Below are positions 44,917 through 64,000 of a DNA stretch of 64,000 nucleotides, piece after piece. The notes beneath the pieces were generated by a model, which was not told the origin of the DNA, did no database searches, and worked only from the letters and a program-made list of their open reading frames with translations. How positions within the stretch are numbered: position 1 is the stretch's first letter; every line of letters starts with the position of its first letter. Made by a program: the position numbers and the translations under genes. Origin of the DNA: Patescibacteria group bacterium (lineage in GTDB: Bacteria > Patescibacteriota > Minisyncoccia > Minisyncoccales > UBA5738); NCBI GenBank assembly GCA_022710775.1, contig JAKLGH010000001.1, positions 201,746-265,745 on the forward strand, written 5' to 3'.

Positions 44917-45078
44917 TTTGTCAACAACCCCGGCCTGAAGGCCGGGGCTTGTTAGAGGTTCTCTTGGTTCCTTCGAAACCAAGCTAAAGGCGCCCTCCAT
45001 CCCGCTCTGTTCGGCGGGATTCCGGGGCGGGCCTTTTCCCCGGCCTGAAGGCCGGGGCTTGCGGCCCGGTTAAGTCAA
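44917..45078 (-). mobile_element. 162-bp non-autonomous derivative (MITE/PATE-like) of the IS200-type element
   Basis: Both ends match 41832..42420 nearly base for base, including both CCCCGGCCTGAAGGCCGGGG hairpins and the ATCCCGC..GCGGGAT hairpin. tnpA is replaced by the short hairpin CTTGGTTCCTTCGAAACCAAG. Confidence 0.8.
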
Positions 45079-45125
45079 TAAAACAAAAGCCTATCTCATA
45101 ATAGGCTTCATTAGATTTAACCGTT

Positions 45126-47706: not shown

Positions 47707-47707
47707 A

Positions 47708-48742: not shown

Positions 48743-48746
48743 AAAA

Positions 48747-49079
48747 TTATCTTCCCTTTAAAATTTTATCTAAAATTGCTTGTATTCCATCGGCTAAATT
48801 TTTTGATATAACACAAAGATGGCCGAATATTCCTAATATAAAAATGAAAAATAAGACAATATCAATAGCATTCATACTATCACCATTTAGAAATGGCAAT
48901 CTGATAAATATAAAATAGTAACCAATCAATCCGGAAATAAAATAATTAAAAAAATCATTCCACATTTCAGAAAATTTTGATTGCCACTTTTTTCCAACAT
49001 ATTGATCGGAAATTGATTTATATTTTATTAAGCCAAGAATTAAGCTCGCTACGATTATAGTAATTAAAAAAATTGCCAT
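48747..49079 (-). CDS. small multi-pass membrane protein
   Basis: Three hydrophobic segments; 4-nt gap to the methylase gene. Confidence 0.55.
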   Translation of the reverse strand: MAIFLITIIVASLILGLIKYKSISDQYVGKKWQSKFSEMWNDFFNYFISGLIGYYFIFIRLPFLNGDSMNAIDIVLFFIFILGIFGHLCVISKNLADGIQAILDKILKGR

Positions 49080-49083
49080 ATTT

Positions 49084-49285
49084 TTATTTAAACAATTCCG
49101 CCACCGGCACGCCGAGGGCTTTAGCTATTTTTTCTAATGTATCCACAGTAGGATTCGGACTTTCTCCAGCTTCTATCTTTACAACGGTATTTAACGCCAA
49201 ATCAGCGTCTTTTGAGAGGCAATCTTGTGAAATTCCTTTTTTTGATTCGTAATTTGCTTATTTTTCGCCAACGAAATTTTTTCAC
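49084..49285 (-). pseudogene. XRE-family HTH regulator interrupted by a +1 A in an A7 run
   Basis: Frame 1 reads (GTG)KKFRWRKISKLRIKK. After the A7 tract (plus T7 at 49237-49243) the next frame reads GISQDCLSKDADLALNTVVKIEAGESPNPTVDTLEKIAKALGVPVAELFK. Together they form a canonical Cro/C1 HTH. Confidence 0.5.
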
Positions 49286-49340: not shown

Positions 49341-49363
49341 AAAAAAGCGGGTTTTACCCCGCT
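49341..49363 (-). terminator. orphaned terminator of the original tRNA-Asn locus
   Basis: Minus strand AGCGGG-GTAAAA-CCCGCT followed by TTTTTT, about 35 nt downstream of the displaced tRNA 3' fragment. Confidence 0.6.
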
Positions 49364-49395
49364 TCCTGCTGAAACTGGTTTGTATTCAACTTCTG

Positions 49396-49413
49396 GGCTC
49401 CGGTGGTAGGATT
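49396..49413. repeat. att-type direct repeat (copy of tRNA-Asn 3' end), distal junction
   Basis: GGCTCCGGTGGTAGGATT is identical to 63902-63919. Confidence 0.8.
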
Positions 49414-49457
49414 TGCTTCGGCTTCGCTCAGCATAAATGCTTCGGCTTCGCTCAGCA
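49414..49457. repeat. two 20-bp direct repeats TGCTTCGGCTTCGCTCAGCA (24-bp period)
   Basis: Copies at 49414-49433 and 49438-49457, starting immediately inside the att repeat. Confidence 0.8.
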
Positions 49458-49480
49458 CTAGCTCAATTCTTGCATTCTAC

Positions 49481-49762
49481 TCAACGAAGCGATTCGACAA
49501 TCTCGGGACAGGCGTTTATTCCAATGTTTCCATCGACCAGCATTTGCTTCTTTGCGTGATTCCAGCCTTTTATTTGTTTTTCCCTTTTCGCCGCCTCACT
49601 AACTGTTGAATATTTCTCACAATAAACGATCTCAACACAAAAGAACTTTCTTGTATAGAATGATTCTTTATTACGGTGTTCGTTTAATCTTTTTGCAAGG
49701 TCATTTGAAATCCCTACGTAAAAAGTTTTCTTGTCGCAAAGAAGTAAATATAAGTACCACAT
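49481..49762 (-). CDS. GIY-YIG nuclease family protein
   Basis: WYLYLLLCDKKTFYVGISNDLAKRLNEH ... REKQIKGW matches the GIY-(x10)-YVG, R and E pattern. Confidence 0.8.
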   Translation of the reverse strand: MWYLYLLLCDKKTFYVGISNDLAKRLNEHRNKESFYTRKFFCVEIVYCEKYSTVSEAAKREKQIKGWNHAKKQMLVDGNIGINACPEIVESLR

Positions 49763-49946
49763 ATTTCTAGGCTGCTCATGGAAGGGCTTGCCCTGAGCTT
49801 GCCGAAGGGCTCAGAGCCGTGCGTGAACTTAGAACCGTAATTATGAACGGCTGGCACTCCTACGAAATGGACGCGGCCGTCAAAATGCTCCGCCGGGAGT
49901 CGCCGTTCGATTGGATTGAATGATTCAGCAACACTGCAAAAGTGTC

Positions 49947-50459
49947 TTATTTCTGAAACAAATGTTTATTCTTAAAAATCAAATAGATCATACTTAATAT
50001 TAGAGCAATGCCAACCGGCGGAATGGCGTATAAAACCAAATTGGCAATGTTAAACAAAACAGAGATGCTAGTATTAAGAACTTTGAAAAGCCAGGGAACG
50101 AGAAAGGCATACGAAATCCACATTAAAAATATCCAGAGTATCGCCTTTATCGCATTATAGAGCTCCCACATGCCAAATGCCTTAACAACGATATCATGAA
50201 GCACTTTATAAAATTTGATCAGGTACAGAAAAAAACCAAGCGTGCAAAAAGTAAAAGCACTATAAAACACCCTGACGAAAATACTTGGCGCGGATAATGG
50301 GCTGATATTTTGCCATTGAAATTTAATACCAAAAGCAAAATGCCAGAGCAGAAGTACAAGAACTAAAATAATATAAGTTATTCCAGAACTTACTATCTCT
50401 TTTGTGTTTTTTATTATTACTTTTTTATACCAATCACTACTTTTCATTTTATTATTCAA
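49947..50459 (-). CDS. four-TM membrane protein, gene 4 of the unknown operon
   Basis: Four long hydrophobic segments; 4-nt overlap with the upstream gene. Confidence 0.6.
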   Translation of the reverse strand: MNNKMKSSDWYKKVIIKNTKEIVSSGITYIILVLVLLLWHFAFGIKFQWQNISPLSAPSIFVRVFYSAFTFCTLGFFLYLIKFYKVLHDIVVKAFGMWELYNAIKAILWIFLMWISYAFLVPWLFKVLNTSISVLFNIANLVLYAIPPVGIALILSMIYLIFKNKHLFQK

Positions 50460-51811
50460 TAACCCAGTTTAAATTTATCAAAAATTTCTAATTGTTTTAA
50501 AAAATCCTTATGCGAATCAGAACTATTACCCTCCTTAAGTTTTTTGCTTAGCACTGGCATTGTTTTAAGGTATCCGTCAAAACCTAACAAATTAAGGTAT
50601 TCATCCACAAAAATAATAAGTTTTTCAGCTGCCATCTTAACAAACCTATACGGCTCCAGAAAATACTCGTTATCTAATTTGTAATGCCCCCATTCGCCTA
50701 ATTTACTTCCGTTTTCTTTAGATAAGGCCACGATATGGTTAAAAAAATCTTGCGGAACTCTAATCATATTAAAATAGAAATTATCGTTTCTATTATCAAA
50801 ACGCAGCGCCTTAAGTCTTGCCCTGTGAATAATAAGGTCTCTAGGACTATACGTTAAATTGATCAAAGAGGAATTTTGGGAAAGGAAATCTTTAATTTTA
50901 CCGTTCTCTTGGTACAAGAGCTTCATGAAATCTTTTTGTCTATCCTTTCTTAATCCGATTCTTTCAAATTGATCAAATTTAATTTGATAGCGGTATTTGG
51001 ATATCCAAGCAAGTGAATCAAAAACCCCAGTGAATAGGGTGATTAGGTAATTAAAGTGGTAGATAGTAGCGTCCTGGGTATCATTATTAACACCGGAATA
51101 GTAATTTATACCTATCTCATCTATTGCTGTAAGCAGATCAATAATTCTGTCTCCAAGCGAAGCTGTAATATCCATTAAATCATCTCCCCGAGGAATATGC
51201 TTTTGCCCATAGACAATGATTGACCAAACTTTTTGGTAATTTTTAACTTTTGTCTTCAAAGAATAAAGATACCAAAGACCTCTATTAACGTAATAATTGG
51301 GAGCAATTAAAAATTTATTTTTATTTTTACAATATAAATCAATAAAAATTATCGCCTCTTCTGGGCTCAAGATACTTTGCGCTGGCAACTCCGGGAAGCC
51401 ATTCCTTGCCCAGTTTAGCCGGCTTAACAACTTTTTTCTCTCTGTAACTAAGATAACTTTTTTATCCTCTGACACCCCTAACAATGTCTTAAGAATAAAA
51501 GTTAAAATAAAGTCGTCATACTTGATATCAAGAGACTCGGCAATTATTTTTATGTCGGATATTTTATATCCGAACATGGTGCTTTCTTTGTAGCCATGTA
51601 ATTTGTCGCCTAATTTATCAATGACAATCCCGCTAATATCATTTTTGTCACTGAGAGACAATTGAACTACTGTATGCGTCTTTGAGCTGCCCAAAGAAAC
51701 AAACTCAAAAAGTTCATTATCAAAATAATTAAGCAGCCTCTTAGCGACATCAGATTTTAAAGAGTCTGAATCTAGTAAAATTCTTAGTGGCTTTTTGTAT
51801 TTATTATCCAT
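50456..51811 (-). CDS. hypothetical protein with HEPN-like Rx4H motif, gene 3 of the unknown operon
   Basis: 451 aa. C-terminal half has YSPRDLIIHRARL (R-x4-H). The N-terminus RILLDSDSL ... VILVTERKKL is faintly PIN-like. Both calls are tentative. Confidence 0.55.
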   Translation of the reverse strand: MDNKYKKPLRILLDSDSLKSDVAKRLLNYFDNELFEFVSLGSSKTHTVVQLSLSDKNDISGIVIDKLGDKLHGYKESTMFGYKISDIKIIAESLDIKYDDFILTFILKTLLGVSEDKKVILVTERKKLLSRLNWARNGFPELPAQSILSPEEAIIFIDLYCKNKNKFLIAPNYYVNRGLWYLYSLKTKVKNYQKVWSIIVYGQKHIPRGDDLMDITASLGDRIIDLLTAIDEIGINYYSGVNNDTQDATIYHFNYLITLFTGVFDSLAWISKYRYQIKFDQFERIGLRKDRQKDFMKLLYQENGKIKDFLSQNSSLINLTYSPRDLIIHRARLKALRFDNRNDNFYFNMIRVPQDFFNHIVALSKENGSKLGEWGHYKLDNEYFLEPYRFVKMAAEKLIIFVDEYLNLLGFDGYLKTMPVLSKKLKEGNSSDSHKDFLKQLEIFDKFKLGY

Positions 51812-51814
51812 ACC

Positions 51815-52918
51815 TTATGATTTTTTAATTATCTGCTCAACTATCTGGTCAAACGTCATAGTCCCATCACTGTAGTTCTTTAACGCTTCGTCTAACTCCG
51901 CATTGGAGAGGAAGCCATTGTAGACAAGCTTAGGAGCTAAAGCAAAACTGTTCTTTTTTGCGACTACAGCCAGCACCTGCTCATTAAATTCATGTACTAA
52001 ATAATCCCTAAAATCATTCAGATATTTTTTATAACGAATCACTGTATAAATATCATAATACTGAGTCATCTGGGGACCGTTCGTATCCATTAAATAATTA
52101 AAAATAGTTCTGACTTTTGCGCGCGCAATGTCATACTTACGCTTTTCACTTGCGTAAGTTGTATACCGCGCTCGTTCTAAGGGCAAATAATGACTCTCAA
52201 CCTCAACACCGCTTCGAGACTGATCAATACCAAACTGCCAAAACTTTTTAATAGGTCTTAAATATTTAAAACTCTGCGCGGTTGGTGATTTTTTGGCGAA
52301 AGGATATTGGCAATATATAACCTCGTCTTTTTCAAATTCAAACGAACGAGGCTTTTCTTTTTCTTCCCAATTTTTAAATCGTTTTTCTTTAAGATAAGTA
52401 AAAAGACTATATTTTTGGCTATAACCAATAATCTCACCTCGCTTACGTCTAACTTTCATCGTTTCATTTCGAAGATACTCAAAATCAACAGGAAAATGGT
52501 ACTTCTTATTTTTAATATCTATTTCGTCCCACTCAATCATGTAAAACTCGTCTCCCGTAATCAATAACTGCCAAGCAATATCCTCTAAGAAACCGCCCAC
52601 TGAATCCCCCTGGCCATATAAGTCATCCCTATAGAACGAATGCTCGTCAGTAAAATACCTCTCAAGGTCTTGCTTAAGGGCTGGGTCATCGCATTCAATA
52701 CCGAAATAATTTCTCTCATGCGTAACATAGCCAGGCCTATCAGGGACTGGCACATCCCTAAGTGGAAAAAGTGCATATCGAATTGCGTCAACTTCTATGC
52801 TTAACTCCATTCCATTTCTTGATGCCATTTCCAGTTGATCATATCCCTTAATGTACCCGAGTAATGGATCATCAAAAACATATCCTTTTTCTCTTTGTTT
52901 GTAAGGTCGTCGTCTCAT
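51815..52918 (-). CDS. hypothetical protein, gene 2 of the unknown operon
   Basis: 367 aa, soluble, no motif recognised; 3-nt gap to gene 3. Confidence 0.55.
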   Translation of the reverse strand: MRRRPYKQREKGYVFDDPLLGYIKGYDQLEMASRNGMELSIEVDAIRYALFPLRDVPVPDRPGYVTHERNYFGIECDDPALKQDLERYFTDEHSFYRDDLYGQGDSVGGFLEDIAWQLLITGDEFYMIEWDEIDIKNKKYHFPVDFEYLRNETMKVRRKRGEIIGYSQKYSLFTYLKEKRFKNWEEKEKPRSFEFEKDEVIYCQYPFAKKSPTAQSFKYLRPIKKFWQFGIDQSRSGVEVESHYLPLERARYTTYASEKRKYDIARAKVRTIFNYLMDTNGPQMTQYYDIYTVIRYKKYLNDFRDYLVHEFNEQVLAVVAKKNSFALAPKLVYNGFLSNAELDEALKNYSDGTMTFDQIVEQIIKKS

Positions 52919-55395
52919 ATTTTTTTACCTTGAATTTTTTTAAGGGTTTCGACAAACTGCCGGACGGCTTCTCTCTTCTTTGCCCACTCAACAAATGCTT
53001 CGGCACACTCCTCCTCTGGCTGATATGCTCGATAACTTAATTCGCGTATGAATCTGCTTGGATGATTAGCTACTTCTTGTAACCCCGAATAAAACCGAAC
53101 ATCGTCATAAGTCTTTGGCAATTGATCTATTTTCCACAAAATTTGGCCGAACCAATGATGGTAGCGAGTTGTCTCCCAATTTATAAGTTTGAGTGTAAGG
53201 TCAAGACCGCCGACGTCCTTCGGTTTTGACAGAACCTCCATGGCCTTAATGAATTGACCTGGCTGATATGCCGCCCCGATCGTCTGCACGTACTCAATAA
53301 GCAAATGGTAATTTTGCCGGAATTCGCACACCAGAAACACGAAACCCCCGAGAATAAGGCTGAGACGGTTGCGGTACATGATATTGTCGACATTCTTCTC
53401 ATCAGCATTGATGACCGGTAACATTAGCGTGAGTAGGCCAGCCAAAACCTTAAACAGTTTCTCACAATTCTCAATGACTGATGGGAAAAGCATCTTTTCT
53501 AGTTCTTCCCAAAATTCCGAATCGACCAGGATTTGCTTTGGAAGAAATGGCAGATATACTCCAGCTCCAGCGATCTTTGCACCATATTCGTCAGCCAATG
53601 CAACCTTGTCGATATAGAGCAACCGACTGATCCATTCGAAGCGAGCCTTAATAAATATCGCAAGTTCTTTGTGTTTTCCTTTCTGATAGAGGTCTTTGAG
53701 GATTATATTATGATGTGTAATCAACTTTTCTAAAAATTTATCGAGGTATTGCTTCTCCTTTGCCCGTGCATCGTCAAGCGTTTCTTTTTCAAGACGAATT
53801 TGCGGCGTTATGACGCGACCCTCACACTGAACTTCAAGATAGAGGCGATCCCAATAGTCAAGAACCTGGTTATAGAAAACTCCGGGTAGATCGAGCCTCG
53901 CCAACTCTTCGCGTGTGTGCGCAAGCTGTCCGTTTGCATCTACTAGTGATTTTATAATCTCCTGATACTTGGTATAGTCAAAACCATCGACGAGGGTTAG
54001 CCCAATCGCAAAATAAGCATTGAGATATGCGCCAAGCTCGTCTTCGGTCTGGACTTTCGCATAGAGCGCGAAAAAACCATCGAGATACTTTTCGAACGCA
54101 TCAGTCTCCTGATTTTCGTAAAGACCGGCAACTGTTTTTTGATAACGACCGTGCCCGTCCTTTTCGTAATCACCGGCGAGTGCGGTCTGGTAAAAATCAA
54201 TAACGTACTTGAGCAAATGAGTATCCTGCGGCGCTGTTCCAACGCGAGACTCCACAGCTTTAACAATATCAAAAACCCTGTCCTCAAACCAAAGATAATC
54301 CGGGCTACCGATGCGCAGAGGTCCTTTTCCCTGAAGTTCAAAATTGAGCTTCAGAGTTAGCGTCGACATACTATTCGCTTTAACCTCCACCTGCGTTTGT
54401 GGAAACCACCAACCGCGTTCTCTGTCGATATGTTTTTTTCGCTTGGCATACTCAGTGATCAAATTTGCAAGTACCATCGGCGTATAAATCACATCGTTCC
54501 AATTCTCCGCATGCCAGAGGTCTTCGAAAAGAGTCTTGAGTAGAGAAAGATGGTTCTGCGTTCTCATGCGTGAAGTTTGTATGATACTCCAACTCTTATA
54601 TGAATACCGGCTTCGGTCAGAGGCAAGTCGCATGCCTTCCTTCATGTCCGACTGTAACCTCTCAAAGAGATTCTTTGGCTTTATAGTGAAAATATAATGG
54701 TTCTTAAAAACGATAATCCCGAGTAAACAGATAGCTACCAAAATAACGACGGCAATAAAGCTAACCGACGACGGAAGTGTTAGAAGTTGAATACGTAGCA
54801 AGACTGCAATCGCAAAGATATCAGTGAATACAAGAAGTTTGAAAAAGAAATTACCGACGGTTTCCTGGTTAACGTAATCAGATACGGCAGATGAGTACTT
54901 ATCAGTAGTGAGCTGGAGGCCGACTGCATATAGAGCAAATAAAAGTCCCAGAATAGCGGAGATTGCGCCGATAGAAATCTCGAGCACAAGCTTTAAAAAC
55001 TCACTGTCCGGGAGAGTAAAAAAATCAAAGTGAGCTATAAATGCTTGGAACCAGCCAGTTTGAATGTGAGATAGTGACGTTGCGAGACCTTCAACACCCC
55101 AATCGGCAGAGATTACTACTACGAGTGATATTATTAGTACTACTATCGTACCCATAGAATTCCGGATAATTTGCATTGGTATCGTATATTCCGTTTTCCT
55201 ACGTTCCTGATTTCTGTACAGAATCCTTAATGATTCCCTTCGTCTCTGAAAAATGCTGTAAAAGAAACCGGTAAATGTGCCCAAGACGAGAATAAGCTTA
55301 TTTGGTTTTTTGTCTGCATCATAAGAAAAAGAAGAAACCTTTGGTTTCCATAAGATTCGTCGAAGAAAAAATTGTACTGCTCTTAAAAATTTCAT
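52915..55395 (-). CDS. large membrane protein (5 TM N-terminus plus ~590-aa helical domain), gene 1 of the unknown operon
   Basis: 826 aa. TM segments within residues 33-232. LQLTTDKYSSAVSDYV after TM3 is reminiscent of DUF2254-type proteins (weak). 4-nt overlap with gene 2. Confidence 0.6.
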   Translation of the reverse strand: MKFLRAVQFFLRRILWKPKVSSFSYDADKKPNKLILVLGTFTGFFYSIFQRRRESLRILYRNQERRKTEYTIPMQIIRNSMGTIVVLIISLVVVISADWGVEGLATSLSHIQTGWFQAFIAHFDFFTLPDSEFLKLVLEISIGAISAILGLLFALYAVGLQLTTDKYSSAVSDYVNQETVGNFFFKLLVFTDIFAIAVLLRIQLLTLPSSVSFIAVVILVAICLLGIIVFKNHYIFTIKPKNLFERLQSDMKEGMRLASDRSRYSYKSWSIIQTSRMRTQNHLSLLKTLFEDLWHAENWNDVIYTPMVLANLITEYAKRKKHIDRERGWWFPQTQVEVKANSMSTLTLKLNFELQGKGPLRIGSPDYLWFEDRVFDIVKAVESRVGTAPQDTHLLKYVIDFYQTALAGDYEKDGHGRYQKTVAGLYENQETDAFEKYLDGFFALYAKVQTEDELGAYLNAYFAIGLTLVDGFDYTKYQEIIKSLVDANGQLAHTREELARLDLPGVFYNQVLDYWDRLYLEVQCEGRVITPQIRLEKETLDDARAKEKQYLDKFLEKLITHHNIILKDLYQKGKHKELAIFIKARFEWISRLLYIDKVALADEYGAKIAGAGVYLPFLPKQILVDSEFWEELEKMLFPSVIENCEKLFKVLAGLLTLMLPVINADEKNVDNIMYRNRLSLILGGFVFLVCEFRQNYHLLIEYVQTIGAAYQPGQFIKAMEVLSKPKDVGGLDLTLKLINWETTRYHHWFGQILWKIDQLPKTYDDVRFYSGLQEVANHPSRFIRELSYRAYQPEEECAEAFVEWAKKREAVRQFVETLKKIQGKKI

Positions 55396-55503
55396 ATCCC
55401 TTCTTGCTTATTAAGTAATCCACAATCTACCTACTTCCATTTTCGTAAGATTTTCGGTATACTATAAATATATCACTTTGAGTTAAAAACATCAATCACG
55501 CTT

Positions 55504-56967
55504 ATGGCCATTCCGATAACAAAAAGACAAAAAGAAGTCCTAGATTTCATAAAGAAGTTTATAAAGAAGAAAAAATACCCTCCAACACTGGAGGAAATAT
55601 GTGTCGGGCTTAAACTCTCGGCCGTTTCCACTGTTCACCAGCATATAGAAGCGCTGGCCGAAAAAGGCTATTTAAAAAAAGTTGGAAATAACGCCAGAGC
55701 GATTGATATTAATGAACCAGAGGCAATGGTTAGGGTCCCACTCCTCGGAACAATCGCGGCCGGAGAACCTATAGAAGCGGTCCAACAAAAAGAATTTATT
55801 GCTGTGCCTAAAACAAAATTACCTGTAAACGGTGAAATTTATGCTCTTCGTGTTATTGGAAACAGCATGATAGACGAAAATATTAATGAGGGAGATGTCG
55901 TTCTGATAAAACATCAAAGCACTGCTGATAACGGCCAAAAGATTGTGGCTTTAATTGATAATCACGAAGCGACTTTAAAGAAATTCTATAAGAGCCGTGG
56001 ACTTGTTCGACTTGAGCCGGCAAATAAAAACTACAAACCAATTATCATCCAAAAAGATCAGGAGCTCTCAATACAGGGTATTGTTTTGGATGTTATAAAA
56101 AGCGGTGGGGAGATAAAAGAAAATCCAACACTATTTAATGACGAAATAGAAAAGGACGATAATTTACCAATAAACAAAATTATTTGCGGCGACGCATTGC
56201 ACCACTTGCAAAAACTGCCAGATCAATCAATCGACTTGATAATAGCTGACCCTCCCTACAACCTATCAAAAGGAAATCATATCCATTTTAATAACAACGG
56301 CTTAAAAGGCTTCGGCGGTGAGTGGAATAAGGTGATGGAAAATTGGGACAATCTTCCCTTGGTTGATTATTTCAAATTTACTGCTAAGTGGCTAAAAGAA
56401 GTTAAAAGAATCTTAAAACCTACAGGTTCAATATGGGTTTTTGGAACTTATCACAATACTGGAATTATTAATTTGATATTCCAGACGCTTGGGATTGAAA
56501 TAATTAACGAAGTGGTTTGGTACAAGCGCAATGCCTTCCCAAATCTTGCCGGCCGGCGTTTTACTGCGAGCCATGAAACCCTGCTATGGGGACACGCCGG
56601 GGAGAAAAGAAAATATTATTTCGACTATAAGCAATCGAAAGAATTCCATGATCCGTCCGACCTATTAAAATCTCAGGGCAAGCAGATGAGAACGGTTTGG
56701 GATATCCCGAACAATAAAGAATCGAGGGAGATAGAATTCGGCAAACATCCAACCCAAAAACCTCTGAGCGTTTGTAAAAGAATTATTTCCTTATGTTCAA
56801 AGCCAGATGATATTGTCTTGTCTCCTTTTGCTGGAGCTGGGAGCGAATGTTTAGCCGCAAAAGAATTGGGGAGAAAATATATTGGCATAGAGCTCGATGA
56901 AAAATACGTGGATATTGCAAACAAAAGACTGAAATACTCCAAAAATCAACAACCTTTATTTAACTAG
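55504..56967 (+). CDS. LexA-like repressor (wHTH + S24 peptidase) fused to a beta-class N4/N6 DNA methyltransferase
   Basis: Residues 1-205 form a complete LexA: PPTLEEI...STVHQHIEAL, cleavage site IAAGEPI, Ser in GNSM, Lys in ATLKKF. Residues 215-487 carry IIADPPYN (motif IV), then SPFAGAGSE (motif I). Confidence 0.8.
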   Translation: MAIPITKRQKEVLDFIKKFIKKKKYPPTLEEICVGLKLSAVSTVHQHIEALAEKGYLKKVGNNARAIDINEPEAMVRVPLLGTIAAGEPIEAVQQKEFIAVPKTKLPVNGEIYALRVIGNSMIDENINEGDVVLIKHQSTADNGQKIVALIDNHEATLKKFYKSRGLVRLEPANKNYKPIIIQKDQELSIQGIVLDVIKSGGEIKENPTLFNDEIEKDDNLPINKIICGDALHHLQKLPDQSIDLIIADPPYNLSKGNHIHFNNNGLKGFGGEWNKVMENWDNLPLVDYFKFTAKWLKEVKRILKPTGSIWVFGTYHNTGIINLIFQTLGIEIINEVVWYKRNAFPNLAGRRFTASHETLLWGHAGEKRKYYFDYKQSKEFHDPSDLLKSQGKQMRTVWDIPNNKESREIEFGKHPTQKPLSVCKRIISLCSKPDDIVLSPFAGAGSECLAAKELGRKYIGIELDEKYVDIANKRLKYSKNQQPLFN

Positions 56968-56969
56968 AT

Positions 56970-57776
56970 ATGAATCGTTTATTACCTTTTATAAAATGGA
57001 GTGGCAGTAAAGGATCGCAAGCAAAAGCGATATCCGCTTATTTGCCCGACAACTTTAATACGTACTATGAGCCGTTCTTGGGAAGCGGTGCAGTTTTAGG
57101 GTGGCTAAGACCTGAGAATGCAGTATGCGCTGATATAAATAAGGCATTGATCGATCTTTGGCGGCTTATCCAAAAAGACCCGAATAAAGTTATAAACGAA
57201 TATAAAAATAACTGGGAGAAGCTTCAAAAAAGCTACAAATTTTTTTACAAAATCCGCGACAAATTTAATAAAGAAAAATCTCCTCATCACTTATTATTTT
57301 TATCTAGAACCTGCGTTAATGGATTGATAAGATACAACAAACAGGGTGAGTTTAATAATTCGTTACACTATACCAGAAAAGGAATTCACCCGGATCGTTT
57401 GAAAAAAATTATATTCGATTGGTCCGATAGGATACAAAATTGTAATTTTATGGCTCAAGACTATAGGCGGGCGACAAAAAAAGCACGAAAGGGAGATTTC
57501 GTGTATCTGGACCCGCCCTATTTCAATACAAAAGGACGCTATTTTGGTACGATTAATTTTGCCGAGTTCGTGGAATATTTAAGTGATCTCAATAAACGCG
57601 GTATAAAATACGCGCTTTCTTACGACGGACTACGCGCAGAGAATAGCTACATCGTAGAAATTCCAAAAGAATTATACAAAAGACATCTGCTTCTACCTTC
57701 CGGAAACTCAACATTTAAAAAAGTTCAAGATAAAAAGGTAGAAAAAGTCTTCGAATCTTTATATTTAAATTACTAG
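56970..57776 (+). CDS. Dam-family (alpha-class) N6-adenine DNA methyltransferase
   Basis: FIKWSGSK, YYEPFLGSGAV (motif I), VYLDPPY (motif IV); 2-nt gap after the fusion gene. Confidence 0.85.
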   Translation: MNRLLPFIKWSGSKGSQAKAISAYLPDNFNTYYEPFLGSGAVLGWLRPENAVCADINKALIDLWRLIQKDPNKVINEYKNNWEKLQKSYKFFYKIRDKFNKEKSPHHLLFLSRTCVNGLIRYNKQGEFNNSLHYTRKGIHPDRLKKIIFDWSDRIQNCNFMAQDYRRATKKARKGDFVYLDPPYFNTKGRYFGTINFAEFVEYLSDLNKRGIKYALSYDGLRAENSYIVEIPKELYKRHLLLPSGNSTFKKVQDKKVEKVFESLYLNY

Positions 57777-59773
57777 GATTCAATTTTTACCTCTAATATT
57801 TTGGGGTATTTTGTAGCTAACTTTTTGATAACTTGTCCGAAGTGTTTTGCTTGCTCCGTATGCATTACATGGATAATGGTTTTATAGCTGCCGCTTACAA
57901 ATTCAACGCCAATCGCAACATCAGCTTTACATTTTTTTAAAGCCAGTTTTAGCTCTTCTACTTTTTGGAATCGAAACGCAACCGCTGACAAAATCTTCAG
58001 GTCTCTATCGCGGTTTTCGTTTTTATAAGACTGCCATTGCTGGCCATTACTTCTTATCGATATTGGATTACTTGATAAGAGCTGATGAACATACTTAACC
58101 AATCTAATGCCCACCTTATCTTCTAACCGCGCCTGAACGTCTTTTGACTCGATTGGGACTAAATATGCTCCGGAGCTAATCTGTACGAGATGATCTGGTC
58201 TTTTTGAATCAGCTCCAGAAACTCTCGGCAATGAGGTCCAGCGAAATTCAATCTTGTTTTGAAAATCAATTATATTTATTCCGCTCCAATCGCCGCCAGG
58301 AGGATTACAAAGCGATTCGTAAATCCCTTCTGAAATCGCGTTGGAAAACAGCAGGTGCAAAACTGAATCAACATCGTGCTCACCAAAGGTAGGACTAACC
58401 GCAGCGGCCGCTAATGGAATCTTTTTAATTTTCTCCTCCGGTTTATTTGTAACAAATCCAACGTTTTTTATCTTTTTCGAGGTAATACTATCAATGATAA
58501 TTCCATCGCTTAAATTAACAATTGCCTCCCATAAACCATTTATTGAAGCTAGTCTGTGCATGTCTTTAGCTAATTGAGCCCAAACGGTAGGATGGGCCGG
58601 ACCATAAACCACTGAGAGTAGATCGGCGTGATCCATTCCAAAAATCATGCGCGCTAAAGGAACTAAACCTCTATCGGGCCGAGAGTCATCGCCCCTAGGC
58701 TTGAAGCCGGCAATCCAGACACATAATAAATGCTTGTCTGATTTTGACAGCCATTCTAAAAACTCTTCACTGACTCTATTCTTGTATAACTTTTTAATGT
58801 CGGCGGCTAAAGCGACCCGTTTATTTTTGGGAATAAGACAAATAGGAATCTCCTTTGATCCGATAGCTACCGCTTTATTTTTATTAGCTAATTTTAATAA
58901 TCCTAAAAATGTTCTCGTGAGAGATTTAATTCCCAACTTTTTATTCCACGGAAATTTACGTTCTACGAGCCAATCGGCTTTTTGCGTACCAGTATTTTTT
59001 GAATAAAGTTCTTTCCACTCTGCGGCACTTAATGTGTCTTTTTTCTTCCTGTTGTCTGACAAAGTGCCAATTAAATTTAAAAGTTTTGCTTCAAGTGCTT
59101 TCTGTGAATTACTGGTACTGCTTTCTAAAATTATCGACTTAACCAGTTCGGATGCCTCTTTAAATCCAAAACTCTTAATAAATTCGGCTGGGATGCTTCC
59201 GCTTAACGAGGGACTCGGAATATAGACCGGCATCGAGATGGTGCCGCTTTCGGGGCCGAGCGTTGAATAAGCAAATGGTACTAAGGGATTTGGAAACCTG
59301 GCCGCTTTTAATGATCTATCTGATCCAAGTTCATATCCTCCCAATTCTGTAAAATACAGATAAGGAATTCCCGCGTAAGCCAATGCCAGAGCCCGGCCTG
59401 TTCTTTGCCAGGCATTATTACCAGCCGGCAAAGCTCCGCTGAATTCTAATGACAGGATCGGTATCTCTATATTTTTATCTTCTTCAAATTTCGTGATAAT
59501 CGCATCGGTGGCCTCTCTTACTGGTGCGCCACGAGCTGCCAAATAATCGGTAATCGAAAAACTCCACCTGCCATAACCGGGAAATAACTGTATTAAAAAA
59601 TCTCTTGAGCTGGACTCAAGTTTGTAAATAGGAGCGTAAGCAGGGCCATCTTCAACTATTTTGCAATCTTTGTATTCTCCGTTAAGAGATACTGCTAAAA
59701 GCTTAAGCGCATTTTCACACTCCAAAATATTGTCTCCATGTATTCGGAGTTTAAATACAGGCTTGTTTGCCAT
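57773..59773 (-). CDS. putative restriction endonuclease (C-terminal PD-ExK)
   Basis: 666 aa, convergent, overlaps the Dam gene stop by 4 nt. KRPDHLVQISSGAYLVPIESKD fits PD-x14-ExK. Confidence 0.6.
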   Translation of the reverse strand: MANKPVFKLRIHGDNILECENALKLLAVSLNGEYKDCKIVEDGPAYAPIYKLESSSRDFLIQLFPGYGRWSFSITDYLAARGAPVREATDAIITKFEEDKNIEIPILSLEFSGALPAGNNAWQRTGRALALAYAGIPYLYFTELGGYELGSDRSLKAARFPNPLVPFAYSTLGPESGTISMPVYIPSPSLSGSIPAEFIKSFGFKEASELVKSIILESSTSNSQKALEAKLLNLIGTLSDNRKKKDTLSAAEWKELYSKNTGTQKADWLVERKFPWNKKLGIKSLTRTFLGLLKLANKNKAVAIGSKEIPICLIPKNKRVALAADIKKLYKNRVSEEFLEWLSKSDKHLLCVWIAGFKPRGDDSRPDRGLVPLARMIFGMDHADLLSVVYGPAHPTVWAQLAKDMHRLASINGLWEAIVNLSDGIIIDSITSKKIKNVGFVTNKPEEKIKKIPLAAAAVSPTFGEHDVDSVLHLLFSNAISEGIYESLCNPPGGDWSGINIIDFQNKIEFRWTSLPRVSGADSKRPDHLVQISSGAYLVPIESKDVQARLEDKVGIRLVKYVHQLLSSNPISIRSNGQQWQSYKNENRDRDLKILSAVAFRFQKVEELKLALKKCKADVAIGVEFVSGSYKTIIHVMHTEQAKHFGQVIKKLATKYPKILEVKIES

Positions 59774-59890
59774 AAAAATAAAGTAGCTTTTCTACTTAAA
59801 GGGTATCACGAAATAAGATTTTTTTCTACCGCTGATTTCCGTCAACTTCTTGTCAGCTTTTGTCAGAAAAGTTTTCCACAGACGGACCTG

Positions 59891-59920
59891 TTGACGGTCC
59901 GTGTTCCGGCCCGCTATTAT
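59891..59920 (+). promoter_or_regulatory. promoter of the small RNA/leader
   Basis: TTGACG 59891-59896, 18-nt spacer, TATTAT 59915-59920. Confidence 0.45.
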
Positions 59921-59926
59921 AAAAGC

Positions 59927-60058
59927 ATAAGAGATATGAGTTTGCCTGACGGCGTTCCGATTAATCGGAACTAAGCGAGACGGGGCTACGACTTCTGTTA
60001 TCAAGCAGCGATTGCTATTTTTGCTTGATGACTGGAAGTGGTAGCCCTTTTTGTTTTT
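59927..60058 (+). ncRNA. ~130-nt small RNA or terminator-type leader (candidate)
   Basis: Hairpin GUUCCGAUUAAUCGGAAC, then a long stem GGGCUAC(59983-59989)...AUCAAGCA/UGCUUGAU...GUAGCCC(60041-60047) followed by UUUUUGUUUUU. Confidence 0.4.
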
Positions 60059-60162
60059 AAGTCAAAAGTAATTTTCCCTCTGAGGCTAAGGTGCCTCGAT
60101 GTGATCCGAAAAAGTATTTGAATTGATAGATAAAGGCTAGTCCCCGGTGGGGCCAGCCTTTT

Positions 60163-60363
60163 ATGTTGCCCCCAGAAGCTACACAAGAATTCAAAGAATT
60201 ATATGAAAAACGCTACGGCGTAAAACTCTCCGACGAGGAGGCGTCTTTGCGCGCCAACAATCTTTTTAAACTCTACAAAATCACCTACATGGGTGAGCCG
60301 TCAATAGACGACTTCAAAGATAAAGTAGTGAAAAGTCATGACTTACAACCAAACCACAATTAG
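60163..60363 (+). CDS. hypothetical small protein
   Basis: ORF in track, preceded by hairpin GGCTAGTCCCCGGTGGGGCCAGCC. Confidence 0.4.
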   Translation: MLPPEATQEFKELYEKRYGVKLSDEEASLRANNLFKLYKITYMGEPSIDDFKDKVVKSHDLQPNHN

Positions 60364-60649
60364 CGAAATCCAATTTTATCCGGTCAAACCCAAGGACGGC
60401 CTCCTCGGGTTCGTTTCGTTTGTCCTGGACAATAAGTTTTGGATGGGATCGGTAGCCGTGTTCAGCCGGCCGGACGGCCGATACCGCCTGGTTTATCCTA
60501 CGCGCAAAGTGGGAGGCCAGAACATCAATATTTTTCATCCCATAACTCAAAAAGCTGGCCAGGAGGTCGAAACAGCCGTCAGTGAAAAAGTAGCTGAATT
60601 ACTTAGTGAAAATTATGAACCAGACGAATCAACCCAAACCACGTGGTAA
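60338..60649 (+). CDS. spoVG: SpoVG-family protein
   Basis: ISEIQFYPVKPKDGLLGFVSFVLDNKFWMGSVAVFSRPDG..RLVYPTRKVGGQNINIFHPIT aligns with SpoVG (VTDVRL..DGRMRAIASITLD..F.V.DIRVI...G.FVAMPS.....F.DIAHPI). Confidence 0.7.
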   Translation: MTYNQTTISEIQFYPVKPKDGLLGFVSFVLDNKFWMGSVAVFSRPDGRYRLVYPTRKVGGQNINIFHPITQKAGQEVETAVSEKVAELLSENYEPDESTQTTW

Positions 60650-61049
60650 AAGCTTAAATTTCTTTCCTGCACCACACATCATCTACGACGATGAAAAAAT
60701 ACGTCGCGCTTTGACTCATGCCGAACGCGATTTTTTAATGGCCTTAAGCCATCTCACTAATCGCTATGGCGATGCCGACGGCTGGTTCTGGCATATCGAT
60801 AATATCTTCATCGGTCGCGATGACAAAGAGAAAGGGTTTGCTTCTCTGGGCTTCGGCCGGTCAACCTGCCGGCGCGTCAGGAAAAAACTACTCGATCTCG
60901 GGCTGATAGAAATGAAGCCGGGAACATTAGAACGCGGCCGCTGGGCCGGCACGATGTATCGCCTTAATCCGCGATTGCTAAAAACGACGGGGGTTCAAAA
61001 TGGAGCACGGTCAGGCACCATAGAGAACCCCGGCCCGGGTCCACCATGA
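60606..61049 (+). CDS. winged-helix DNA-binding protein, replication-initiator-like (tentative)
   Basis: LTHAERDFLMALSHL ... RSTCRRVRKKLLDLGLIEMKPG wHTH-like. Sits next to the iteron-like repeats. Confidence 0.4.
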   Translation: MKIMNQTNQPKPRGKSLNFFPAPHIIYDDEKIRRALTHAERDFLMALSHLTNRYGDADGWFWHIDNIFIGRDDKEKGFASLGFGRSTCRRVRKKLLDLGLIEMKPGTLERGRWAGTMYRLNPRLLKTTGVQNGARSGTIENPGPGPP

Positions 61050-61136
61050 AGCACTTAGTAATAAAGATTGAGTAAGAAATAATAATTAATAAAAAAGCTT
61101 AAATAAAGCAAGCAAGCTTGCTGAAAATTAAAAAAT

Positions 61137-61332
61137 AGGGGTTGGGCAAAGCTTGGGTGAAACTGGGGCAGATTTCAGGGACTAAAGGCGACTGAAAGGC
61201 GACCAAAATTCAGTAGTTAGGGGTTGGATAAAACTTGGACAAAACTTGGATGGATTTTGCCGAAAATCTGTTTAAACCAGAGAAAAATAGACAAAAACAG
61301 ATTGGGGCAAAACTGGGGTGAAACTGGGGCAG
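61137..61332. repeat. iteron-like direct repeats (AAACTGGGG / AAACTTGG units in three clusters)
   Basis: Clusters at 61137-61171, 61220-61253 and 61303-61332. The identical 17-mer GGGTGAAACTGGGGCAG occurs at 61155-61171 and 61316-61332. AAGGCGAC x2 at about 61185-61203. Confidence 0.7.
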
Positions 61333-61457
61333 CTTTTGACCCCTCCCATCTCCCTAAAAAACCGAAAAAACGGTAAAATAGAAATATACGTTTGACTTCC
61401 TTCGGCCTTAGGACCATGTTGTGTGTAGAAAGGCCGAAAACAAAATTAAAATAATTA

Positions 61458-62330
61458 ATGAACAAAACTATGACTAAAAACGCCAAAATTTACGCCGTAA
61501 TCGCCGTTGTAGCGGTTCTTGGGGCCGGTTACGGAGTTTATCACCTCTTAAGCAGCAATGCACCGCGTGGGGCCGAAACAACAGATCTGGCCTCCATTAC
61601 GAACTTCGACCAGTGCGTCGAAGCGGGATTCGCAATTATGAAATCCAATCCCGAACAATGCATGACTTCCGACGGCCGGATTTTCGTCAACGAAAAACCG
61701 CCGGCTCAAAGCGAACTGGATAAAGCCGAGCAAGCCATCAGAACGTTCATGGGGGAACCGAACTTGGAATTGAAATATACCGGCCAGAATAATCATCCCT
61801 CTAACTTCGCGATCCTAAGCAACGTCAAACAAAACGACGGTGGGTTTACGGCCGACAATCCTAAAGAATGGGATCGGCCGGTTTACATCTTCCAGCAGAC
61901 GGATTATATCAACGACCGCTGCGAAGTTTATCAATACCAGGTAACGCAAAAAACGAATCAGGTCGTGGAAATCGGAATCGTCTACCCGATCGAACGCAGC
62001 GCCACCGTACCGGGAAATTGTCCTGGCAACGGCTCGCTGGACTGGCCTTTAATGAGCAAAGACGAAATCGAACAGGCCGCGTTCGCGTATCTCGGCCATG
62101 ATCCAGAACATACCAAATTCATGATAAGGTCGGACATTCAGCTACAATATATCCCAAGTAAACCTGGAGCAGAAAATCCGGCGGCCAACGAATGGCGCTG
62201 GGAGGATAAAAGCTACAAACTTCCGGAGGGGCTCATGGGCGATCCCTGGCCTTATCCGACCATGAGAATAATAATGTCGGCCGGTGGCAAACTGGTTTAC
62301 TACCTAAACACCACCGAACTCTTTGACTAA
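61458..62330 (+). CDS. membrane-anchored/secreted hypothetical protein
   Basis: N-terminal TM AKIYAVIAVVAVLGAGYGVYHLL. Confidence 0.6.
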   Translation: MNKTMTKNAKIYAVIAVVAVLGAGYGVYHLLSSNAPRGAETTDLASITNFDQCVEAGFAIMKSNPEQCMTSDGRIFVNEKPPAQSELDKAEQAIRTFMGEPNLELKYTGQNNHPSNFAILSNVKQNDGGFTADNPKEWDRPVYIFQQTDYINDRCEVYQYQVTQKTNQVVEIGIVYPIERSATVPGNCPGNGSLDWPLMSKDEIEQAAFAYLGHDPEHTKFMIRSDIQLQYIPSKPGAENPAANEWRWEDKSYKLPEGLMGDPWPYPTMRIIMSAGGKLVYYLNTTELFD

Positions 62331-63915
62331 TATGAACCAGGAAGTACAACCCAGACTCAAGTACTTCCTCTACGCTCGAAAATCTTCGGAACAGGAAGAC
62401 AGACAGGTCCTTTCAATCGATTCGCAAAAGAGCGAGCTGGAAGCGCTTGCAAAAAGAGAAAAGCTCCTCATCGTGGAGCGCCTGGAAGAATCATATTCGG
62501 CCAAAGCGCCGGGACGCGAAATTTTCAACGCGATGATCAAACGGATAGAGAAAGGCGAAGCCGAGGGCATCATCGCCTGGCACCCAAACCGCCTTTCCCG
62601 AAATTCCGTGGACACCGGCTACCTGGTTTATCTCATGGACCAGAACCGGCTTTTGGAAATCCACACGCCCGGCCAGACATTCAAAAGCACTCCCAATGAT
62701 AAATTTTTACTTAACCTACTTTGCAGTCAGGCCAAGCTGGAAAACGACAACAAAGGCATAGACGTTAAACGCGGACTAAGGCGTAAGGTAGAAATGGGAT
62801 GGCATCCCGGACCGGCGCCCGTAGGCTACAAAAATACGCCGGACAAAGAAAAAGGATTCCGCACCATTCGCAAAGACCCGCGCATGTTTCCGATTATCCG
62901 GAAAATGTTCGACATGCTTTTAAGCGGCGACTTTACCGCTCCGCGGGTGCATGAAATCGCGGTGCAAAAATGGGGACTGAAAAATTTGGCGCGTAGCGGC
63001 TACTACCGCCTGCTTTATAATCCCTTTTATTACGGCTGGTTCGAATGGCCCAGAGGCTCGGGCAACTGGCATAAAGGCAAGCACGAACCGATGATCACGC
63101 GCGACGAATACGACAGGGTTCAAAAAATGCTTGGCCACGGCAGTAAACCCAAACCGGAAACGCACACCTTCGCTTATACCGGCATGATCCGCTGTGGCGA
63201 GTGCGGCTGTATGGTAACGGCCGAAAACAAGATCAAGAAAAACAAAAACGGCAACGTCCATCACTACACGTATTATCACTGCACCAAACGCAAAGGCCCG
63301 TGCAGCCAGAAGTGCATCGAAGTTAACGAACTGGAAAAGCAAATCAAAAAGACGCTGGCCAGAGTCAGACCGCCGGAAGAATTCCACGGCTGGGCCATGA
63401 AGTGGCTGAGAAACGAAAACGAACGCGAGGCCGGCGACAGAAACGCCATACTTTCCAATCAACAGAAAAATTACGAGGCCTGCGTGAGAAAACTGGACGC
63501 TTTGATCGACATGAGAGCGTCGGGAGAAATCAGCGAAGAAGAATTCAAGAAAAAGAAATCGGAAATCGGCCAGGAAAAAATCAGACTGCACGAATTATTG
63601 AACGACACGGACAACCGCGTGGACAGCTGGCTGCAGACGGCCGACAACGTCTTGACCTTCGCCGGCGACGCCAATGAAGCGTTCACCGAAAGGGGTCAAC
63701 ACGCCCGAAAAGTGATTCTCTCCGCCTTAGGTTCGAACCTCATCTTAAAAGACAAAAACATAAGAATTGACACGGATTCCGCGCTTCTACCGATGATTCT
63801 TGTCTCATCCGGGTCAAATCGAAAAAACGGACGGTTAGAACCCGCCGAAACAGGCTCTAATAAAGAGAAAAGCCGAGCTTTTAACTCGGCAAATCCCATG
63901 TGGCTCCGGTGGTAG
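62323..63915 (+). CDS. large serine recombinase (integrase)
   Basis: Resolvase catalytic domain YARKSSEQEDRQVLSIDSQ ... GIIAWHPNRLSRN, recombinase domain, zinc ribbon CGECGC...YYHCTKRKGPC, coiled-coil tail. The last 14 nt lie inside the att repeat/tRNA. Confidence 0.9.
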   Translation: MTNMNQEVQPRLKYFLYARKSSEQEDRQVLSIDSQKSELEALAKREKLLIVERLEESYSAKAPGREIFNAMIKRIEKGEAEGIIAWHPNRLSRNSVDTGYLVYLMDQNRLLEIHTPGQTFKSTPNDKFLLNLLCSQAKLENDNKGIDVKRGLRRKVEMGWHPGPAPVGYKNTPDKEKGFRTIRKDPRMFPIIRKMFDMLLSGDFTAPRVHEIAVQKWGLKNLARSGYYRLLYNPFYYGWFEWPRGSGNWHKGKHEPMITRDEYDRVQKMLGHGSKPKPETHTFAYTGMIRCGECGCMVTAENKIKKNKNGNVHHYTYYHCTKRKGPCSQKCIEVNELEKQIKKTLARVRPPEEFHGWAMKWLRNENEREAGDRNAILSNQQKNYEACVRKLDALIDMRASGEISEEEFKKKKSEIGQEKIRLHELLNDTDNRVDSWLQTADNVLTFAGDANEAFTERGQHARKVILSALGSNLILKDKNIRIDTDSALLPMILVSSGSNRKNGRLEPAETGSNKEKSRAFNSANPMWLRW

Positions 63916-63975
63916 GATTCGAACCTACAACCTTCTCGTTAACAGCGAGCCGCGCTACCGTTGCGCCACACCGGA
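63901..63975 (-). tRNA. tRNA-Asn (anticodon GTT), CCA encoded
   Basis: Folded by hand. Acceptor TCCGGTG/CACCGGA, D stem GCGC/GCGC, anticodon stem CTCG/CGAG with loop CTGTTAA, T arm GTAGG-TTCGAAT-CCTAC, discriminator G, CCA. Confidence 0.9.
63902..63919. repeat. att-type direct repeat, tRNA-proximal junction
   Basis: GGCTCCGGTGGTAGGATT is identical to 49396-49413. Confidence 0.8.
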
Positions 63976-64000
63976 ATATAACGCTGACTTAAACATAATA

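Follow-up and report, generated by a model that had tools for sequence, protein, structure and literature searches.

How an island of genes came to lie at the 3'-end of a tRNA gene, and which sequences mark its ends, is the question raised by the locus analysed here, which occupies the right-hand part of a 64,000-nt stretch of a Patescibacteria (candidate phyla radiation) contig (JAKLGH010000001.1; this whole stretch is termed the window below). The window contains a tRNA-Asn(GTT) gene (63901–63975, minus strand), with the core genes greA, rpoD and dnaG to its right and, from its left, the gene of a large serine recombinase (LSR) that ends inside the tRNA. A preliminary description of this DNA had proposed that the LSR integrated a 14.5-kb element into the 3'-end of this tRNA, using an 18-bp block as attachment (att) core. 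The block is present exactly twice, both times on the plus strand: the 18-mer GGCTCCGGTGGTAGGATT occupies 63902–63919, where it corresponds to tRNA nt 58–75, and 49396–49413, with no further copy in the window at up to two mismatches (shuffled sequences lead one to expect none), and the tRNA-Asn is indeed intact, with its CCA encoded, as judged by ARAGORN and by Rfam (RF00005, 68.6 bits). As for the integration itself, the LSR almost certainly placed the island at the tRNA 3'-end, a part of the proposal that is upheld by the att geometry of the recombinase family, by tandem arrays of related elements and by an element far better conserved between genomes than the rpoD genes next to it; the 18-bp core and the 14.5-kb limits, in contrast, were not supported. 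The model that we consider likely as a whole is that of a 14,094-bp element, integrated at the 3'-end of tRNA-Asn by its own LSR and carrying its attP site within the LSR gene; we are less sure of the precise crossover position and of how the 18-bp copy arose.

The recombinase and its relatives at tRNA genes

The LSR gene (plus strand) can be read from TTG 62323 (530 aa) or from ATG 62332 (527 aa), the latter being the start called in other assemblies, and an exact-protein look-up of the 530-aa form returned no record. Its stop codon, TAG at 63913–63915, lies within the right-hand repeat copy, as had been claimed, and its last five codons are antisense to the tRNA 3'-end. The protein exhibits Resolvase (PF00239, E = 8e-20, residues 15–159), Recombinase (PF07508) and Zn_ribbon_recom (PF13408) domains as well as a YxRxSS motif (R16, S18, S19) that is invariant in 20 LSR homologues; matches in the PDB are the SPbeta integrase (residues 11–435) and the C-terminal domain of the A118 integrase (211–323), whilst helical matches to SHOCT and DUF4164 at residues 376–443 fall where the coiled-coil is expected. 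Because all the features that can be assessed at this level were found, we classify the enzyme, by its sequence, as a large serine recombinase. Serine integrases are the chief means of inserting large DNA into genomes; in nature they mostly act on idiosyncratic sites within protein-coding genes.

More than 7,900 homologues of the LSR were retrieved at E <= 1e-10, the few of them with a source name being labelled Patescibacteria-type, and a scan of one genome per species identified 510 GTDB species genomes encoding a relative. Related loci were fetched (given L-numbers below), and tRNA genes were called with ARAGORN and Rfam; in the window, domains were assigned with Pfam, defence genes with PADLOC and phage families with PHROG. 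In most of 80 fetched loci ARAGORN places a minus-strand tRNA across the 3'-end of the LSR gene, and in the alignment of 20 homologues many C-termini (...GWDSNPRP or ...DSNQ) are what a tRNA T-arm encodes when translated antisense. In order to compare positions between loci, we used the Asn codon of the conserved C-terminal Asn-Pro motif as anchor in every LSR copy, which made 74 copies evaluable. The T-loop heptamer TTCGAAC lies at +26..+32 from this codon in 60 of the 74, nearly all from Patescibacteria, and the tRNA 3'-end lies at +8 to +12 (+9 to +12 in all loci but one). The fixed distance between Asn codon and heptamer thus indicates that the LSR gene ends antisense within the tRNA. Relatives at least 75% identical to the LSR target tRNA-Asn, and those at 45–55% identity are found at Gln, Asn, Glu, Trp, Arg, His or Ser tRNAs. 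Taken together, the LSR belongs to a large and apparently undescribed clade that targets tRNA ends and keeps its att site inside its own last codons; full-text searches of a literature collection for this clade, or for serine recombinases at tRNAs in Patescibacteria, found nothing relevant. The finding is more interesting at the level of this family than for the single island. The clade, in at least 510 species genomes, uses as half-site the most conserved short sequence in any genome.

Several apparent exceptions to this geometry turned out to be tRNA-Asn genes with a group I intron in the anticodon loop, for which ARAGORN makes no call. Such an intron, apparently situated between U35 and U36, is present in many Patescibacteria tRNA-Asn genes (L057 11604–11885, L061 6757–7020, L101 527–841, L125 8026–8273, L166 7856–8048 and L099 7855–8047), and LSR elements are found at these 3'-ends too. 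Two candidates were rejected for the same reason: "42-nt tRNA-Asn 3' halves", considered as att remnants of another element class, are the 3' exons of intron-bearing tRNA-Asn genes, and the frame of P0004 (564 aa, from a 12.6-kb contig that may be circular), considered as an attP-type LSR, runs on through a tRNA gene with an intron.

Position of attP and the ends of the element

Eight LSR copies without an adjoining tRNA agree with the tRNA-adjacent copies up to and including ...GCT(C/G), after which they run into an in-frame tail, the DNA of which carries TT[ACG]GAAC at +31..+37, exactly 5 bp outward of the T-loop position. The same outward spacing is seen in L192, in the window's own ends once joined, and at attL sites. 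Six of these attP-type copies (L011, L013, L033, L035, L049 and L051) occupy the distal position in tandem arrays, each array closing with an LSR and a tRNA 6–10 kb further on, which identifies the junctions as P-core-P' joints between two elements. The attP-type copy of L072 and its counterpart at tRNA-Gln in L077 exhibit P arms that are 98% identical and diverge right after GCTG, and relatives away from tRNAs diverge from the window directly after ...TGGCTC. On these sequence comparisons, attP is placed inside the 3'-end of the LSR gene.

The consensus of 39 P' arms, GCTCcg.....TGgAcga.gTTaGAACC, and that of the B' arm on the tRNA side, GCTCCGGtGGTAGGATTCGAACC, exhibit GGA at the same place, with the heptamer displaced by 5 bp. 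In the structural model of the LI integrase the motif of the zinc-ribbon domain (ZD) occupies half-site positions 16–24 in attP and 11–19 in attB (PMC3783163), that is, 5 bp nearer the centre in attB; the heptamer positions of the clade, +26..+32 at tRNAs and +31..+37 in attP-type copies, match this published relation between the half-sites. The 5-bp offset recurs over dozens of independent natural sites and offers comparative support for the structural directionality model.

The position of the crossover can be narrowed down through the sequence shared by both ends of an element: attL and attR of the same element have 3–8 bp in common, always including GCT(C/G); a single case, with 15 bp, departs from this range. 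The attL and attR of L038 carry different bases at the discriminator position, which places the exchange to the right of it. Since the shared cores, L038 and the ZD-motif spacing agree, we infer T13-C/G14 as the crossover dinucleotide, equivalent to about tRNA nt 72–71 and to TC at 63905–63906 in the window, within the attR core GGCTC (63902–63906, plus strand; tRNA nt 75–71). According to this mechanism, the LSR would recombine attP in the 3'-end of its own gene with attB at the extreme 3'-end of tRNA-Asn; the tRNA at 63901–63975 would provide the B' half-site with its acceptor 3' strand and T-arm, and P' would copy the tRNA arm, holding GGA at the same distance and the heptamer TT(A/C)GAAC 5 bp outward. 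Short cores also account for an observation that first seemed to argue against integration, namely that most relatives have no direct repeat of the tRNA in the 10 kb preceding the LSR.

Such an integration would replace only the last few tRNA nucleotides and the trailer, and the element, through the antisense strand of its last LSR codons, would resupply both G73-CCA and a terminator hairpin. A terminator scan and folding predict an intrinsic terminator for the tRNA at 63860–63890 (minus strand), consisting of the hairpin GCCGAGTTAAAAGCTCGGC (63872–63890) and the T-run TTTTCTCTTT; it is encoded antisense within LSR codons ~510–520, in the last 20 or so before the Asn-Pro motif. Among close relatives the stem changes in compensatory pairs (GCCGAG/CTCGGC, GCCACG/CGTGGC, GCGTCGC/GCGACGC and GCGGAGC/GCTCCGC) as the protein sequence drifts, and family-wide the P arm folds with -10.8 kcal/mol versus -7.6 kcal/mol for control segments of the same genes (p = 2e-6). 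The covarying hairpin and the better-than-control fold thus argue that the element, in displacing the tRNA trailer, provides the tRNA with a new terminator, and the target gene would be kept functional by resupplying no more than G73-CCA and this terminator.

At the left, the attL signature GCTS-N16-TTNGAAC has a single match in the 64-kb window, at 49809–49835 on the correct strand, and the sequence 49808–49835 (plus strand) most likely represents the attL of the LSR element, with the core GGCTC at 49808–49812 and a P' arm whose heptamer TTAGAAC lies at 49829–49835. Across the 1.96 Mb of fetched loci the signature has 41 matches, against about 7 by chance (an estimate scaled from shuffles of the window); 38 of the 41 are in LSR orientation, either at tandem junctions or 5.8–11.3 kb upstream of a tRNA, and often follow directly after a hairpin and T-run like those flanking unoccupied tRNA-Asn genes. 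L011, L016 and L022 have left ends homologous to the window attL, which lies 412 bp inside the left 18-bp repeat. Both ends of the element are thereby hybrid att sites with a shared 5-bp core, P arm at the right and P' arm at the left, and the limits move from 14.5 kb to the 14,094 bp between 49808/49812 and 63902/63906, leaving outside a small cassette with a GIY-YIG nuclease gene. A second match to the B'-type pattern in the window (15480–15501) was discarded, as it lies in coding sequence and matches no RNA family. In L048 (910–1040) a tRNA-Arg(TCT) gene is situated about 30 nt inside the attL P' arm and so apparently forms part of an LSR element, at its left end.

The window attL reads GGCTC-AGAGCCGTGCGTGAACTTAGAACC... 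and opens a frame of 38 codons, GLRAVRELRTVIMNGWHSYEMDAAVKMLRRESPFDWIE. Joined at the CTC codon, this stretch (49810–49923, plus strand) continues the LSR frame and encodes a C-terminal tail, LRAVRELRTVIMNGWHSYEMDAAVKMLRRESPFDWIE*, which is also present at the left ends of L011, L016 and L022. Beyond its att part the tail exhibits a pN/pS of about 0.25–0.53 and is under purifying selection, and in the window it has no start codon of its own. Given the frame, the missing start and the selection, the simplest explanation of the tail is that it forms the LSR terminus once the element is excised, the predicted length of the enzyme being 559 aa for the excised and 527 aa for the integrated form; integration would truncate the LSR, leaving a 34-aa tail at the far end and providing two antisense-tRNA codons instead. 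An attP inside the gene leads to the testable idea that the integration state could feed back on the enzyme. A more far-reaching proposal, which we regard as possible but doubtful, is that the tail swap serves as a built-in switch of directionality or expression and that at the same time the clade reads the near-universal T-arm and acceptor with little demand on the outer arm. If this were true, only the episomal form would make the full-length, integration-competent enzyme with its 34-aa tail, the truncated integrated form having another activity, and the clade would constitute a natural integrase family whose target could be predicted, and perhaps changed, from tRNA sequence alone.

Origin of the 18-bp repeat

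If the LSR did not cross over within the 18-bp block, the left copy (49396–49413, plus strand) requires another origin. It is an exact displaced copy of the tRNA-Asn 3'-end, 19 nt in length when 49395 is counted against the reconstructed tRNA end before LSR integration. The copy is carried by five independent assemblies (JGI, NCBI, ENA and Logan) with 99.98–100% identity and is thus not an assembly artefact, the possibility that would have undermined the preliminary description. On the tRNA strand it reads ...GAGCC-C; a G precedes GGCTC at both candidate left junctions in this way, whilst the end supplied by the element is a full CCA. In tRNA direction the copy is followed by a C and then by a strong hairpin with a U-run (~49341–49366, minus strand), which had been reported before as a terminator and which is supported by the fold of 76 nt (-27.2 kcal/mol, z = -3.9), even though a simple terminator pattern scan missed it. 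Unoccupied tRNA-Asn loci have flanks of the same hairpin/T-run type, and it is probably this hairpin that originally terminated the tRNA.

Between the two candidate left ends lies a cassette of 393 bp (49414–49806, on the tRNA's minus strand), which contains a 93-aa GIY-YIG gene (49481–49762, minus strand; Pfam, E = 9e-16) and a repeat of 2 x 20 nt (D14, 49414–49457). Homologues of the GIY-YIG gene are present in eight other loci (L154, L156, L128, L038, L069, L114, L035 and L112), where they sit immediately upstream or downstream of tRNAs: in the seven with an ARAGORN tRNA the gene is on the same strand and within ~130 nt of it, except for L154 (~1 kb downstream), and in L112 it adjoins the 3' exon of an intron-containing tRNA-Asn. 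In L156, tRNA-Asn is followed directly by the GIY-YIG gene with no LSR present; L154 combines a 16-nt fragment of the tRNA-Asn 3'-end and a GIY-YIG gene with the last 22 codons of a decayed LSR; and L104 exhibits a 22-nt tRNA-Asn fragment 131 nt from the tRNA, with neither LSR homology nor a GIY-YIG gene detected. The small GIY-YIG genes may represent a tRNA-associated selfish cassette. In the window, the cassette is probably a separate and earlier insertion downstream of the tRNA, and the 18-bp repeat is most likely the duplication that arose from this older event and not the LSR crossover site. In its most parsimonious form the history would then start from a tRNA-Asn with its own terminator, next to which the GIY-YIG cassette inserted and duplicated 19 bp of the tRNA 3'-end; the LSR element would have integrated last, at tRNA nt 72–71.

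The reading of the preliminary description, in which one 14.5-kb element (49414–63901) has the 18-bp block as LSR att core and the GIY-YIG gene as cargo, would account directly for an exact 18-bp direct repeat with a native-looking terminator just outside it. It could further draw on the tRNA-like extensions near the left ends of L016 (14 bp), L154 (16 bp) and L057 (15 bp) and on a partial heptamer, TTCGGCT, at P' distance from the left copy. We nevertheless consider it unlikely: the P' signature and the in-frame tail are situated 412 bp inward of the left copy, core and tail stand directly at the left ends of L022, L011 and L016, cores shared by attL and attR are typically 3–8 bp, the sequence past the left copy follows the tRNA at attB spacing, with no heptamer thereafter, and GIY-YIG genes as well as 3' fragments of tRNAs are also found where a tRNA has no LSR. 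The LSR may be able to use the outer 18-bp site too. A B-arm half-site motif, GGTTTGTA, was seen left of 49396; it has no counterpart at L022 or at other attL sites and was treated as a chance occurrence.

The frequency of tandem arrays and stacked attL remnants in the family, together with the GGCTC that bounds the 412-bp segment on both sides, suggests another origin for this segment, namely that it is the decayed remnant of an older LSR element in tandem. This seems quite improbable, as its right end exhibits neither an LSR 3'-end nor the P-arm hairpin, its left end follows the tRNA at attB spacing without a P' arm, and GIY-YIG genes lie beside tRNAs independently of any LSR. An earlier insertion of the cassette thus remains our preferred explanation for the repeat.

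Mobility, cargo and relation to known systems

Good, though indirect, evidence for movement of the element comes from comparison with other genomes. The element backbone and LSR (59835–63979) are 90–91% identical between the window and L008 and L022, whereas the rpoD genes adjoining the tRNA in these two loci are only ~68% identical to that of the window's host, and their tRNA-Asn differs from the window's in the anticodon stem; this contrast in identity reveals horizontal spread. Left of the backbone the cargo differs between relatives, and tandem arrays and stacked attL remnants are frequent (L013, L035, L049, L050, L051, L055, L016 and L192).

The preliminary description had suggested searching for the empty site and for reads across the circular junction; we scanned assemblies and contig collections and found neither for this strain. 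All contigs encoding window proteins come from anaerobic-digester metagenomes or from one metagenome-assembled genome, all those found through the flanking proteins are from the same strain and carry the element, and no unoccupied counterpart to the attL outer flanks was found among the fetched loci. Several points have to be set against our model, the first being the most serious. No empty site was found for the strain or species, every assembly that covers the site carrying the element; a degenerate attP pattern for both candidate circular junctions gave no match in viral and metagenome contigs; and the attB pattern gave 103 matches, none with the tRNA body of this species or with either candidate left flank. 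No recombination directionality factor was identified. No mirror image of the heptamer was found in the P arm, and the tRNA trailer, which makes up the B arm, shows no conservation, so that recognition of attB would need strong asymmetry. The window P' arm has GCG where the consensus is GGA, the crossover dinucleotide rests on comparison and not on observation, and the origin given to the 18-bp copy is a reconstruction. Finally, L009 and L192 contain attP-type LSRs with no tRNA for at least 10 kb downstream and are not obviously tandem arrays.

L009 (2601–4385) encodes the closest genome relative of the LSR (98% aa identity), with no tRNA adjoining it. Its open reading frame (ORF) runs to 594 aa through a degenerate heptamer that is offset by 1 nt, and a GreA-like gene lies ~2 kb downstream; the arrangement may reflect integration at a secondary site or a rearrangement. 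L192 exhibits an attP-type LSR and two further P'-type remnants (3567, 5386 and 10308) on a contig with the core genes def, fmt and priA and without a tRNA within 10 kb, and a tandem-array model does not fit there.

The same LSR type away from tRNAs in L009 and L192, and the lack of an excision product or empty site for this strain, would also be compatible with a resident or domesticated LSR next to an island that came by another route, such as a tyrosine integrase since lost. We judge this to be highly improbable: no Phage_integrase (tyrosine recombinase) domain was detected between 49.4 and 63.9 kb in the ORFs of at least 89 aa that are not nested antisense or in several shorter ones, genomes differ far less in the LSR module than in the flanking rpoD, and the att geometry is fixed over seven tRNA species, with attL at element-sized distances and with tandem arrays.

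Classical tRNA islands with tyrosine integrases, ordered by the Williams 2002 sublocation classes, reportedly share with this element an integrase beside an intact tRNA, tandem islands and defence cargo; enzyme family and mechanism are different, and the window element would resupply only ~4–5 nt of the tRNA compared to 15–45 nt. In SSV1-type integrases of archaeal fuselloviruses attP lies within the gene, the target is a tRNA and integration disrupts the ORF; these enzymes are tyrosine recombinases that are split mid-gene, whereas only ~34 C-terminal residues would be exchanged in the LSR of the window. To our knowledge, an in-gene attP is otherwise known only from such SSV-type tyrosine integrases of archaea. 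The A118/LI, SPbeta SprA, Bxb1 and phiC31 integrases exhibit the same domain set (SPbeta and A118 being the PDB matches mentioned above) and a short core as here. These integrases target protein-coding genes and not a tRNA 3'-end, and they differ further in that the LSR of the window has attP inside the integrase gene, with integration altering the C-terminus, in that its P arm also appears to encode the terminator of the target gene, and in that the chromosome-side outer arm appears unconserved at the sites of its clade.

Amongst serine recombinases, that of the Ralstonia filamentous phage phiRSM also integrates into a tRNA 3'-end, using a 13-bp core at tRNA-Ser (PMC4471427). This small enzyme, of the resolvase/invertase type, lacks the recombinase and zinc-ribbon domains, its attP is intergenic and its core is longer than the ~5 bp in the window. 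The preliminary description had called both tRNA targeting and a long identity block unusual for LSRs. Targeting is indeed described as rare where actinomycete integrative and conjugative elements (AICEs) of Mycobacterium in tRNA-Leu are treated (PMC3218068), whilst the long block, being most likely the product of an older event, would be no trait of this LSR. In Prochlorococcus an LSR is present in 27 of 937 tycheposons and related cryptic elements (bioRxiv 10.1101/2020.12.28.424599). AICEs and tycheposons are tRNA-gene elements with a serine recombinase like that of the window, from other phyla and recombinase lineages; the parts consulted mention no in-gene attP, T-arm mimicry or antisense terminator, and the distinction is one of descriptions and not of sequence.

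The cargo listed in the preliminary description (restriction-modification (R-M) genes, a GIY-YIG nuclease, SpoVG, iterons and a four-gene operon) was recovered by Pfam, PADLOC and a repeat scan. The element backbone (59835–62331, plus strand; 70–91% nucleotide identity to L008, L009, L022 and L011–L028) comprises, all on the plus strand, a 66-aa ORF, a SpoVG-like gene (60338–60649; Pfam), a gene for a 147-aa Rep-like protein (60606–61049) and a gene for a 290-aa protein (61458–62330). The 147-aa protein, previously taken as a winged helix-turn-helix protein, weakly resembles a replication initiator (phrog_270, E = 9e-4), and iterons (repeat family D1, 61136–61336) lie beside its gene. To the left follow a 666-aa type II restriction enzyme (57773–59773, minus strand; PADLOC REase_II, E = 1.6e-126), a D12 methyltransferase (56970–57776, plus strand; PADLOC MTase_II and Pfam) and a LexA/S24-N6_N4 methyltransferase fusion (55504–56967, plus strand; Pfam). 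The fusion has a complete LexA-like N-terminus, with the LexA DNA-binding domain and the S24 self-cleaving peptidase, which suggests damage-responsive control of the R-M system; related segments are present in L014, L024, L025, L028 and L032. The four-gene operon (49947–55395, minus strand) encodes proteins of 826 aa (DUF2254), 367 aa, 451 aa and 170 aa without a confident function: Pfam assigned DUF2254 only, PADLOC nothing, and the lone PHROG match is to a family of unknown function. The clade also represents a main vehicle for defence genes, in the form of R-M systems, in the small genomes of Patescibacteria, in which mobile elements are poorly known.

Just outside the element lies a second, low-GC R-M module (46600–49233, minus strand) with a short HTH_3 controller-like ORF, a 110-aa protein, an EcoRI-like methyltransferase and a GmrSD_N/HNH enzyme (PADLOC REase_II). 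Homologues of this module are found 5–9 kb upstream of LSR genes in L094 (87% aa identity), L069, L043, L027 and L012. Further to the left, a Y1_Tnp (IS200/REP-associated-type) transposase gene is flanked by 107-nt repeats that are 97% identical (42319–42425 and 44977–45082) and by 57-nt perfect repeats (41867–42289), and the 24-nt perfect repeat CCCCGGCCTGAAGGCCGGGGCTTG occurs at 44928 and 45038.

With respect to the target itself, tRNA-Asn is a shared hotspot: at least two other families of coding sequences end at the identical tRNA-Asn position (...|GGCTCC). One family ends ...PFDTILE..., its copy in L011 (1–875) giving LSR homology and its remaining members being grouped by eye, and the other ends ...SVRA(R/H)WL; the loci of both families are L088, L091, L102, L124, L137, L182, L189 and L011 (1–875) together with L089, L096, L103, L134, L138, L169, L178 and L185. 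Near tRNA-Asn in two Patescibacteria loci, Rfam also matches LOOT RNA with 70–72 bits (L055 7589–7703 and L101 235–358).

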